Source of the DNA: Escherichia phage pO103
Length of the DNA: 39,837 nt
Sequence record: OR204651.1
Reading direction: 5' to 3' (one strand)
Shown: in pieces, positions 1,085 to 3,357 of the stretch
How the letters are laid out: each line of letters starts with the position of its first letter
Position numbering within the stretch: the stretch's first letter is position 1
Notes under the pieces: generated by a model
Seen by the model: the letters and a program-made list of their open reading frames with translations, nothing else
Told to the model about the DNA's origin: nothing
Database searches by the model: none
Program-made: the position numbers and the translations under genes

Positions 1085-1543
1085 ATGATTTACACTAACG
1101 AACCTGCAAACGTATTCTATGTACTGGTATCAGCGTTCCGCTCTAACCTCTGCGACGAAGTAAATATGAGTCGTCATCGTCACATGGTTAACTCACTGCG
1201 TAATGCACCGCTTGAATACGGTAGCGTTGAGTCTACAGACTTGACTGGTTGTTATCGAGAGGCCATCGCAAGTGCACCGACTGAGGAACTGACCGTTCGT
1301 GTACGCTGTGCTAACAGAGCTCAAGCAATAGCGGTTGCACGTCTGGCGTGTAACGAGTTCGACCAAGATTGTGTATTGGTCTATAAGTCACAGACGCACA
1401 CGGCTGGCTTAGTGTACGCTCAAGGCATTACTGGCTATAAAGCTGAACGTCTGCCGGGTAGCTTCCAAGAAGTGCCTAAAGGCGCACCGCTTCAAGGTTG
1501 CTTCACGATTGATGAGTTCGGTCGCCGCTGGCAAGTACAGTAA
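1085..1543 (+). CDS. 0.3: Gene 0.3 S-adenosylmethionine-cleaving enzyme (T3-type SAMase / SAM lyase), anti-restriction
   Basis: 152 aa; near-identical in recalled motifs to T3 SAMase (MI.T.EPANVFYVLVSAFRSNLCDEVNMSRHRH ... GCFTIDEFGRRWQVQ); GAGG RBS upstream. Confidence 0.85.
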   Translation: MIYTNEPANVFYVLVSAFRSNLCDEVNMSRHRHMVNSLRNAPLEYGSVESTDLTGCYREAIASAPTEELTVRVRCANRAQAIAVARLACNEFDQDCVLVYKSQTHTAGLVYAQGITGYKAERLPGSFQEVPKGAPLQGCFTIDEFGRRWQVQ

Positions 1544-1600
1544 GTGATAAACTCAAGGTCGCTCCATGCGAGTGGCCTTTATGATTATCACTTTAACATG
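1544..1600 (+). promoter_or_regulatory. RNase III site R0.5-like (GTGATAAACTCAAGGTC...GGCCTTTATGATTATCAC)
   Basis: Long imperfect inverted repeat with conserved T7 RNase III arms. Confidence 0.6.
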
Positions 1601-1617
1601 CAATAGGACTAACACCA

Positions 1618-1817
1618 TGAGTAAACTTCTGGCAATCTCTAAAATCAAAGGCCAATGCACTGTAACACTGCGTGAGTACTATCACGGGTCAATGGGATGC
1701 ACCTATGTTGTGCGATACGGTAAACAAGTCACACATTGGGTAAACCTGATTTTAGCGCAAGAAGAGTATCAAGCCTGTGTGATACACCAAGCAACATGTG
1801 CGGGCTGGAATGACTGA
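1618..1817 (+). CDS. Hypothetical early protein (66 aa from ATG 1618; ORF open from 1566)
   Basis: ORF in early region; AGGA RBS about 10 nt upstream of ATG 1618; the 1566 start would sit inside the RNase III hairpin. Confidence 0.45.
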
Positions 1818-1850
1818 TGACGCTATTTGCACTCTATGAGGTAACACCAC

Positions 1851-2048
1851 ATGTTATATACATTTGTTGCACTCGTTTACACTCTAATCGCGCTGTACTT
1901 CCTTCGAGACTTCCGCAAGGGTCTCAAGGTACACAAGGCTAACTTCTCGCACTTAAAGTATGGCTTCCTCCCGTGCTTCACTGTCCGTGAACGCAATGGA
2001 CGCTTTAAGGCTAACAAGGTGGGTATTTTCTATGTCGCAACACACTAA
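1851..2048 (+). CDS. Hypothetical early protein, 65 aa, hydrophobic N-terminus
   Basis: ORF with GAGG RBS (1838-1841). Confidence 0.5.
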   Translation: MLYTFVALVYTLIALYFLRDFRKGLKVHKANFSHLKYGFLPCFTVRERNGRFKANKVGIFYVATH

Positions 2049-2250
2049 TGAACTGAAGAAAGGCTATAGGTCTAATGGCACACTCAACGCAGCAAACAGG
2101 CGTATCGTGAGAACGTGGCGCGAGAACAATCTCGAACGGCGCAAGGAACAGGAGCGGGCTGCATGGCATAGACGAAAGGCAAAGGTCAAAGCACAGAAGC
2201 TCGCAGCACTCGAACAAGCAGTAACCAATACATTGAACACTCTTTCTTAA
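2032..2250 (+). CDS. Hypothetical early protein, 72 aa, strongly basic (Arg/Lys-rich)
   Basis: ORF from ATG 2032 with GGTGG RBS; overlaps previous ORF by 17 nt; track ORF 1960..2250 is the same frame. Confidence 0.45.
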   Translation: MSQHTNELKKGYRSNGTLNAANRRIVRTWRENNLERRKEQERAAWHRRKAKVKAQKLAALEQAVTNTLNTLS

Positions 2251-2271: not shown

Positions 2272-3357
2272 ATGAACTACACCGACATTCAGGCACGTCT
2301 GGAAATCATCAAGTCTCTTCCGATTAGCGACTTGGACAAGCGCCAGCCTCTTCTGGTTGCACTGGCTGCTGACATCGTGAACGGTGAAACATGTGATGGT
2401 AACGATACCGATGGCTTGACTGGCTTGGAGTATCAGGACTGGTGGGACACCTTGGACGCACTGATGCGTGATGCAGGGTTTCGCATGCTAGGCAATGGTC
2501 ACTTCAGCGCGGCCTACTCGCACGAAATGTTACCGGGTCGAGTCATTAAGGTTGGCTTTAAGAAAGAGGATTCAGGCGCTGCATACACTGCATTCTGTAG
2601 GATGCACCAAGGCCGAGCGGGTATCCCTAACGTCTATCACGTAGCACGTCATGCAGGTTGCTATACGGTTGTATTGGACCACTTGAATAGTTGCGACCGC
2701 GATAATTACGACCATGAGGTATACGCTGACCTCGCACGTTACTTTGTGGAGTCGGATTGCCATGACGCAAGCGACTTTGCACCGGGTGACTACGAGTTCA
2801 TTGAGACATGCAAGCTGATTCGTGAGTTCTTCAAAGGGATTGCATCCTTCGACATGCACAGTGGGAACATTATGTTCGACGATAACGATGTTCCGTACAT
2901 CACTGACCCAGTCAGCTTCTCACATGACCGTGAACGTGAGGACGGTTTCCCTCTGGACCCTGAAGCACTGCTGGCCGAGGTCGAGGCTGTAGCGCAAGAA
3001 CGCATGATTGAACGTTGCCGCAACCGCAAGGCCAAGCGTGACCCTAACGGAACCTTTCAGGTTAACCGCAAGGCCAACATGAAACGCCGTAAGCACAACC
3101 GTAAGTTACATGTCAAAGGTATGGCACAGTTTGTTAAAGGTTGCATCGAACGCAGGGCCATTGATAGAAACGAACGCCGTGCTGAGATGCTCATGGGGTC
3201 TGCATGGAATAACTTCTGGTTCCGCAATGGTCCCTCAGCGGCACGCAAGGTTGAACAAGTGAACGGCCTTAAGTGGCAACTAGGGGACCGCCTCGCAATC
3301 CAAGCGGGACTCCCTCTGAACATCGACAAGGTACTTGACGCTAAACTGATGGGCTGA
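2272..3357 (+). CDS. 0.7: Gene 0.7 serine/threonine protein kinase / host transcription shut-off protein
   Basis: 361 aa (T7 gp0.7 is 359 aa), position between 0.3 and gene 1, kinase-like N-terminal half. Confidence 0.8.
   Translation: MNYTDIQARLEIIKSLPISDLDKRQPLLVALAADIVNGETCDGNDTDGLTGLEYQDWWDTLDALMRDAGFRMLGNGHFSAAYSHEMLPGRVIKVGFKKEDSGAAYTAFCRMHQGRAGIPNVYHVARHAGCYTVVLDHLNSCDRDNYDHEVYADLARYFVESDCHDASDFAPGDYEFIETCKLIREFFKGIASFDMHSGNIMFDDNDVPYITDPVSFSHDREREDGFPLDPEALLAEVEAVAQERMIERCRNRKAKRDPNGTFQVNRKANMKRRKHNRKLHVKGMAQFVKGCIERRAIDRNERRAEMLMGSAWNNFWFRNGPSAARKVEQVNGLKWQLGDRLAIQAGLPLNIDKVLDAKLMG

Follow-up and report, generated by a model that had tools for sequence, protein, structure and literature searches.

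The closest described systems lie in the early regions of T7, T3 and phiYeO3-12, and the protein families considered here are already known, having been named since the genome papers of those phages. In T7, genes 0.3–0.7 are dispensable according to the PhageMaP study of that phage (PMC11482910), and a product referred to as Gp0.6 has been reported to bind and inhibit the host protein MreB (Molshanski-Mor 2014, as cited in passages of PMC5624674, PMC5502672 and PMC6965359). Expression of that product is reported to make cells lemon-shaped and to lyse them; the active T7 polypeptide may be 0.6A, a fusion or a 72-aa protein. Among the T3-type genes, 0.6 and 0.65 are both entered as function unknown in the genome paper of phage AP5, which also records a TMHMM-positive transmembrane domain in the AP5 homologue of gp0.6 (PMC4283147).

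We compared these systems with a stretch of DNA of 39,837 bases (the window), which is the complete genome of a T7-group (Studiervirinae) phage; the phage-collection records nearest to its early region are those of Berlinvirus phages such as P694, at ∼94% identity. Between a gene 0.3-type SAMase and a gene 0.7-type kinase (Table 1), the original prediction had placed three ORFs of 66, 65 and 72 aa, and these match the ORF list and the sequence exactly; we refer to them as ORF1, ORF2 and ORF3. It had also assigned them to the class I early region, in a slot for host-directed accessory genes, and the promoters bear this out. Phage RNA polymerase promoters with the consensus AATACGACTCACTATTGGGA are found only at position 380 and from 6091 onwards, and three strong sigma-70-type promoters lie within 487–733. 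This layout makes the block from gene 0.3 through gene 1, with the three ORFs included, a class I early operon served by the host polymerase, comparable to those of T7 and T3. A scan of the genome with the T3-type promoter consensus returned no match, the consensus used by this phage being T7-like. All three ORFs are conserved early genes of a T3/T7-like phage that belong to families already named, and we consider it quite likely that they are best explained as three early genes, encoding gp0.45, a T3-type gp0.6 and a free 0.6B-type protein, whose products act as host-directed modulators.

Table 1. Coordinates of the three early genes, their flanks and associated elements in the window
Feature	Position	Strand	Basis
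Gene 0.3-type S-adenosylmethionine lyase (SAMase), 152 aa; left flank	1085..1543	+	Pfam PF23780 E 4.6e-41; phrog_2226 E 1.7e-52
R0.5-type RNase III processing hairpin of the early transcript	~1542..1595	+	Fold energy; alignment with T3 R0.5
ORF1, 66 aa, gp0.45 family; ATG 1617, TGA 1817	1617..1817	+	phrog_6500; tblastn; pN/pS 0.16
ORF2, 65 aa, T3-type gp0.6 family	1851..2048	+	phrog_2385 E 5.5e-28; pN/pS 0.30
ORF2/ORF3 overlap junction (ATG...CAC TAA TGA), left breakpoint of the ORF3 cassette	2030..2050	+	Sliding identity
ORF3, 72 aa, homologous to the +1-frame downstream portion of T7 'gp0.6B'; ATG 2032, TAA 2250	2032..2250	+	phrog_8393; T7 identity
Gene 0.7-type Ser/Thr protein kinase, 361 aa; right flank	2272..3357	+	phrog_2828 E 5e-178

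All three ORFs are coding, and each is under purifying selection in its own frame. Measured by the Nei-Gojobori method against homologous loci, pooled in-frame pN/pS is 0.16 for ORF1, 0.30 for ORF2 and 0.17 for ORF3, and it rises to 1.07–2.15 when the ORF coordinates are shifted by one or two bases; pairwise dN/dS against homologous loci ranges from 0.06 to 0.49. Matches to PHROG profiles span the full length of ORF1 and ORF2, and residues 5–54 of ORF3. That the three might be chance open frames within an untranslated leader or spacer is suggested by their shortness and by the outcome of Pfam and NCBIfam searches, which, like searches against PDB sequences, gave no match for any of them. We regard this explanation as almost certainly wrong: it is refuted by the pN/pS values, since the purifying selection is frame-specific, and it is at odds with the conservation of lengths and starts in phage records or protein clusters numbering from 61 to over 150, with the Shine-Dalgarno sequence that stands before each ORF and with the confident structure predictions obtained for two of the three. 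Other frames of the region fared differently in the same analysis. A 41-aa ORF at 1817–1942 is unsupported, shifted-frame pN/pS being at least 1.07 on the plus strand, and the minus-strand ORFs of the region have no support, the shifted-frame values having been computed for the plus strand only.

The first of these genes starts further downstream than had been proposed. The original prediction opened the region at 1566, where there is an in-frame ATG upstream of ORF1, and this ATG lies in the loop of the RNase III-type hairpin at 1542–1595, which folds with −23.1 kcal/mol (z = −3.7 versus shuffles). The hairpin aligns with the annotated R0.5 site of T3 and with the equivalent intergenic sequence of T7, and many columns of the alignment are invariant in all five sequences. 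Homologues of ORF1 in other phages begin at the position equivalent to 1617. The location of the upstream ATG in the hairpin loop, together with these homologue starts, identifies the segment given in Table 1 as the real ORF1. An 83-aa form of ORF1 beginning at 1566 was ruled out, as its ATG falls in the conserved hairpin loop and the N-terminal extensions called in some sequence records are not conserved.

By homology, ORF1 is the gp0.45 of phages phiYeO3-12, phiSG-JL2 and 13a. It matches phrog_6500 with an E value of 3.5e-43, over residues 1–66 of the 66-position profile, and its identity to the annotated gp0.45 is 88% in phiYeO3-12, 92% in phiSG-JL2 and 67% in 13a; tblastn located it in 159 phage records, annotated '0.45' genes among them. 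The likeness to gp0.45 of these phages includes the place of the gene after the R0.5 hairpin and the AGGA Shine-Dalgarno sequence (PMC4925675), which in the window lies 8 nt upstream of the ATG, and there is no material difference between them. The order of R0.5 hairpin, ORF1 and ORF2 is also found in P694 and D226, the latter holding the same trio of ORF1, ORF2 and ORF3 types, and T3 and T7 themselves are without a gp0.45 gene.

The AlphaFold2 model of ORF1 consists of four beta-strands and a C-terminal helix, with a mean pLDDT of 85 in the best model and of 58–66 in the other four. Foldseek against viral models returned only uncharacterised phage proteins of ∼60 aa, and the ORF1-family profile, run against 1.84 billion representative proteins, gave 18 matches, nearly all of them stand-alone proteins of 60–90 aa; the two long matches are repeat or adhesin proteins and most likely spurious. 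An AP2 or integrase arm-binding DNA-binding fold, in which a three-stranded sheet packs on a helix, was considered as a candidate for ORF1. Among aligned relatives, Y34-G35, A47, H57 and C61 are invariant and C54 is mostly conserved. A C-x2-H-x3-C-A-G motif falls on one face of the predicted C-terminal helix and may form a metal or thiol site; in the model, the invariant His/Cys face of this helix is likely an interaction or metal site.

ORF2 is a T3-type gp0.6, with 69% identity to T3 gp0.6 (NP_523298) and membership of a family that comprises at least 157 protein clusters in a large protein collection. With the T3 protein it shares the 65-aa length, the N-terminal hydrophobic helix, the tail and the genomic position, and what differs is the gene that follows, which is 0.65-type in T3 and 0.6B-type here. 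Its ATG is preceded at 8 nt by a GAGGT Shine-Dalgarno sequence. Residues 1–18 form a hydrophobic helix (Kyte-Doolittle mean 2.09), followed by RDFRK and then by the conserved basic tail, and the protein as a whole has a pI of 10.2. In the family alignment the segment N49–G58 (NGRFKANKVG) is invariant and ORF2 has all 24 of the 24 invariant columns, although its Cys42 replaces an Arg that is conserved at 90% or more in the family. A single N-terminal membrane anchor is thus predicted, and under the positive-inside rule the basic tail would be expected on the cytoplasmic side.

The first 17 nt of ORF3, which is in the +1 frame, overlap the end of ORF2, and the Shine-Dalgarno sequence AAGGTGG lies 9 nt upstream of its ATG. 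Residues 5–54 match positions 53–102 of the 111-position profile phrog_8393 (E 6.7e-13), and the protein is 81% identical, over 72 of 72 residues, to the T7 ORF at nt 1781–1996. It was found by tblastn in 61 phage records, and the family has 39 invariant columns in 30 sequences. T7 0.6B, called '0.62' in the Kluyvera phage Kvp1, resembles ORF3 in its slot directly 5′ of gene 0.7, in having the same ATG and in a 17-nt, +1-frame overlap with the preceding gene. The preceding gene, however, is 0.6A in T7 and a T3-type gp0.6 here, which rules out for this phage the 111-aa fusion of the T7 reference; T7 0.6A was not detected in the window by tblastn, only the last ∼20 codons of ORF2 resembling the 0.6A tail. 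The T3 0.65 protein (phrog_10380) agrees with ORF3 in slot, frame and overlap, as well as in its small size and strongly basic character (pI 11.4), but there is no detectable homology between the two past the first ∼6 residues, which are common because of the overlap. A homology of the ORF3 type to T3 0.65 that had been suspected by eye (A-x-N-K/R-x-L/I-M/V-R) was rejected, hhalign giving probabilities of 0.2% for T3 0.65 and 16% for P694_12, and phrog_10380 is matched by T3 0.65 and P694_12 and not by ORF3.

The original prediction had described the third ORF as strongly basic, and it is: the pI is 11.5 and the net charge +11, with 17 K+R versus 6 D+E. Its remark that no recognised protein resembles any of them does not survive the identities of 88–92% to gp0.45 for ORF1, 69% to T3 gp0.6 for ORF2 and 81% to T7 0.6B for ORF3. 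Homology to characterised proteins of the T3 gene 0.6 family had been named as evidence against it; the homology is present, and the word 'characterised' applies weakly, as T3 gp0.6 is listed with unknown function (PMC4283147) and a target, MreB, has been reported for T7 Gp0.6 alone (cited in PMC5624674 and PMC5502672). Structure prediction followed by Foldseek, the route that it had suggested, produced predicted folds for ORF1 and ORF3 and an informative structural match for neither. For ORF3, AlphaFold2 predicts one helix, over residues 20–71, behind a short N-terminal loop (mean pLDDT 88); the last 18 residues of this helix are amphipathic with a hydrophobic moment of 1.4. Searches of Pfam, NCBIfam, PDB and Foldseek gave ORF3 no family or fold match; two weak Foldseek hits with E values of 8–9, both chains in small-ribosomal-subunit structures, are meaningless. 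A single long helix of this kind gives no fold-level support to the explanation that we prefer.

To place the start of ORF3 we rely on a comparison of 12 loci that carry this type of gene. It follows a T3-type gp0.6 in five (the window, Kvp1, JSS1, LPST144 and D226) and the unrelated T7 0.6A in six (the T7 reference, re-sequenced T7, A7, N30, C5 and one IMG/VR contig). Its own ATG is present at all 12 loci, and in 11 of them both the place of the ATG and the 17-nt overlap are the same. In phage NC-A the gene does not overlap the one upstream but lies in the same frame, after a TGA, with a GAGG Shine-Dalgarno sequence and an ATG of its own; in JSS1 a 15-residue insertion is found just past the start. 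The ORF3 type is swapped as a cassette with its left edge at this ATG. Sliding identity of the window to P694, in which a 0.65-type gene occupies the slot, is 86–100% up to ∼2050, 3–63% from there to ∼2230 and 100% thereafter, whereas identity to A7, in which 0.6A lies upstream, is at most 63% up to ∼2050 and 86–100% after it; the right breakpoint falls at ∼2230–2260. The last ∼20 codons of T3-type gp0.6 and of T7 0.6A are alike (RERNGRFKANKVGIFYVATH versus RELRINRKINKIGSGYDRTH), and these similar 3′ ends hold the Shine-Dalgarno sequence of the downstream gene as well as the junction. From the two unrelated upstream genes, the ATG at every locus and the cassette edge at that ATG, we infer that ORF3 is a separate gene whose translation would be coupled to that of ORF2 by way of the 17-nt overlap. 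A CDS of 72 aa is already given by GU071091 and by most gene callers. In the window, the ORF3 frame is open upstream as far as 1960, an opening that is not conserved; a TAG shuts the frame three codons before the ATG in T7-type loci, and T3 and P694 likewise have a same-frame TAG ahead of their 0.65-type gene. A 96-aa ORF3 beginning at ATG 1960 was ruled out by these stops.

On the pattern of the T7 reference annotation, ORF2 and ORF3 would instead be a single polypeptide, joined by a +1 frameshift programmed at the ORF2 stop or immediately ahead of it, with no independent ORF3. The 'possible gene 0.6B' of NC_001604 is a two-piece join over 337 nt with 0.6A, the same is repeated in RAST-style notes of the JSS1 and ESh3 records, and phrog_8393 is built on the fused 111-aa form; the +1 relation and the 17-nt overlap, both conserved at 11 of the 12 loci, would also fit a frameshift, as would the open upstream frame of the window. 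Even so, we judge it very improbable. A frameshift would have to accommodate either of two unrelated proteins as upstream partner, a breakpoint at the ATG, an ATG that is present at every locus and is served in the window by a good Shine-Dalgarno sequence, and the same-frame, non-overlapping arrangement of NC-A. The TAG of T7-type loci confines any shift to ∼8 codons, in which there is no slippery motif, and the upstream opening of the window is not shared. Judged by what holds for +1 frameshift sites of the prfB kind, CAC, the last sense codon, is unable to re-pair once shifted to +1 (ACU), which also argues against it.

With ORF3 as a separate gene, T7 too would probably make a free 72-aa protein of the 0.6B type. 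Re-sequenced T7 (GU071091) has a separate '0.6B protein' CDS at 1781–1999, and the T7 reference NC_001604 is without one A at ∼nt 1896, which leaves the C-terminus of its '0.6B' out of frame with respect to all relatives. On the phrog_8393 profile, T7 0.6A occupies positions 1–53 and the T7 counterpart of ORF3 positions 53–104; going by this alignment, PHROG 8393 is chimeric, with two unrelated proteins in one profile.

In the explanation that we favour, the three ORFs would be separate, translated, non-structural class I early genes, transcribed by the host RNA polymerase from A-type promoters at ∼487–733. RNase III would cut the transcript at the R0.5-type hairpin and so free a three-gene RNA from the gene 0.3 message. 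From this RNA, ORF1 would be made as gp0.45, a small soluble beta/alpha domain, and ORF2 as a T3-type gp0.6 held by its single N-terminal membrane anchor with the conserved basic tail toward the cytoplasm. ORF3 would be made as a free 72-aa protein from its own ATG, which lies within the 3′ end of ORF2 with a Shine-Dalgarno sequence in front of it, its translation being coupled to ORF2, and all three products would be dispensable host-directed modulators.

What the products act on can be approached mainly by analogy. Because T7 Gp0.6 is reported as an MreB inhibitor, the likeliest target area of ORF3, possibly together with membrane-bound ORF2, would be the inner-membrane face and MreB or the cell-shape machinery; we hold this specific target as a tentative suggestion that is somewhat doubtful. 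ORF3 is homologous to half of the gene 0.6 coding region of T7, and 0.6A is absent from the window but for its last ∼20 codons, so that the analogy fails if the MreB-active T7 product is 0.6A. A more far-reaching version, which we think improbable, sees the conserved active part of the T7 'gene 0.6' growth inhibitor in the 72-aa basic-helix protein of the ORF3 type instead of in 0.6A. In phages of the Berlinvirus type this protein would work with the coupled, membrane-anchored T3-type gp0.6 as a two-part, membrane-tethered inhibitor of MreB or the elongasome, and the '0.6B frameshift' of T7 would be an artefact of the 1983 sequence and its annotation.

Two other readings of function, both of which we consider unlikely, have to be set against host-directed modulation of this kind. 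At least one of the three proteins could inhibit a bacterial anti-phage defence system and not host physiology. The ORFs adjoin known counter-defence genes of the early region (SAMase here, Ocr in T7), and their spread among close relatives is patchy and cassette-like, as is typical of counter-defence genes, with ORF1 absent from T3 and T7 and the ORF3 type alternating with the 0.65 type; dispensability in laboratory hosts, as given in excerpts of PMC11482910, would also fit. However, the searches made showed no sequence or fold similarity to characterised anti-defence proteins, and the 39 invariant columns of ORF3 are more in keeping with a conserved host target than with one in an arms race. 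In the same excerpts, the T7 PhageMaP data give 0.3, 0.4 and 4.7 as genes predicted to counter the Ec86 retron, and no defence-specific effect of 0.6A/B is named there (PMC11482910).

The other reading, to which we give about the same low weight, takes ORF3 as a basic helix rich in arginine that binds nucleic acid and has a short dimerising zipper at its C-terminus; its target would be RNA, the ribosome or DNA, and not MreB. Its pI of 11.5 and net charge of +11, the predicted continuous helix over 20–71 with 18 amphipathic residues at its end and the small-ribosomal-subunit origin of both weak Foldseek matches are in line with this. The composition of ORF3, which we take to resemble that of arginine-rich RNA-binding motifs, serves as a lead only. 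Yet no significant match was obtained to any nucleic-acid-binding family, Foldseek E values of 8–9 carry no meaning, and small proteins that bind membranes or the acidic surfaces of other proteins commonly have a high positive charge as well.

Three early genes with host-directed products thus remain the explanation that we prefer, and their comparative value is modest: the coding sequence of T7 '0.6B' behaves like a gene that stands by itself, can be exchanged and has a start codon of its own. For work on the reported T7 MreB inhibitor, this phage provides a natural 'swap' control, in which the same downstream protein is found with a different upstream partner.

Comparison of the T7 reference sequence with re-sequenced T7 located a one-base difference that affects the downstream part of '0.6B', the T7 homologue of the 72-aa basic protein ORF3. 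NC_001604 is one A short relative to GU071091 (AAGG-ACAAG versus AAGGAACAAG), and because this base is absent, the C-terminus of '0.6B' in the reference is out of frame and reads …DKRGRRGIDERKRLKPRNSPHLNRH. In the re-sequenced T7 records (39,778 and 39,938 bp) and in all relatives examined, the C-terminus is …EQERAAWHRRKEKVKAKKLAALEQALANTLNAIS.

The 111-position PHROG profile phrog_8393 is a chimera of two unrelated proteins, in which positions 1-53 correspond to T7 0.6A and positions 53-104 to a separate 72-aa protein; a match to phrog_8393 can therefore denote either of them. The 72-aa ORF3 homologue of phage vB_Eco_D226 (MN080711, locus positions 901-1119) carries the label 'DNA-directed RNA polymerase', clearly a wrong annotation for a protein of this size. 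In NC-A, represented by an IMG/VR copy, a shortened 0.6A gene terminates at a TGA stop, and the 0.6B-type gene lies 12 nt downstream of the 0.6A end, in the same frame and with its own GAGG Shine-Dalgarno sequence. The NC-A junction is a natural 'uncoupled' arrangement of a 0.6B-type gene.

Within ORF1, the gp0.45-family protein, a C-x2-H-x3-C-A-G motif on the C-terminal helix is kept among distant gp0.45 relatives (33-44% identity), across which H57 and C61 are invariant, and this conservation suggests a putative metal-binding or reactive-thiol site. A 41-aa ATG frame shares its first base with the end of the ORF1 stop codon (TGATGA) and carries no conservation signal, since shifted-frame pN/pS is at least 1.07. 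In ORF2, the T3-type gp0.6 protein, codon 42 (window 1974-1976) encodes Cys (…GFLPCFTV), whereas Arg stands at this position in at least 90% of the family (…PRFTV), and this is the sole deviation of ORF2 from nearly invariant family columns.

Coordinates of features in the window and in the comparison loci
Feature	Location	Remark
Phage-polymerase promoters	window 380, 6091, 6593, 9319, 13682, 18620, 21550, 22537, 26984, 34863, 39272	
ORF1 C-x2-H-x3-C-A-G motif	window 1776-1805	residues 54-63
41-aa ATG ORF	window 1817-1942	crosses ORF2 start in a different frame
Missing A in NC_001604	L001 about 1096-1097	T7 nt about 1896; comparison with L011 (GU071091)
NC-A 0.6A/0.6B junction	L009 about 1740-1770	
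P694 R0.5-type hairpin copies	L003 about 1030-1130 and 1640-1725	

Although gene 0.3 of pO103 is a T3-type SAMase, its promoters are T7-like and not T3-type: the window holds eleven phage-polymerase promoters with the T7-like core AATACGACTCACTATTGGGA, and the T3 promoter consensus ATTAACCCTCACTAAAGGGA had zero matches in the window, even when 3 mismatches were allowed.

The early region of P694 (KP090454) carries an insert between the SAMase gene and 0.45, made up of a gene for a 120-aa acidic Ocr-like protein and a gp0.4 homologue. KP090454 gives P694_8, the Ocr-like protein, the label 'protein kinase'. P694 has the R0.5-type RNase III hairpin twice; the two copies flank the inserted cassette and look like its borders. 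Since the cassette adds an Ocr-like gene, P694 has the SAMase and an Ocr-like gene together.
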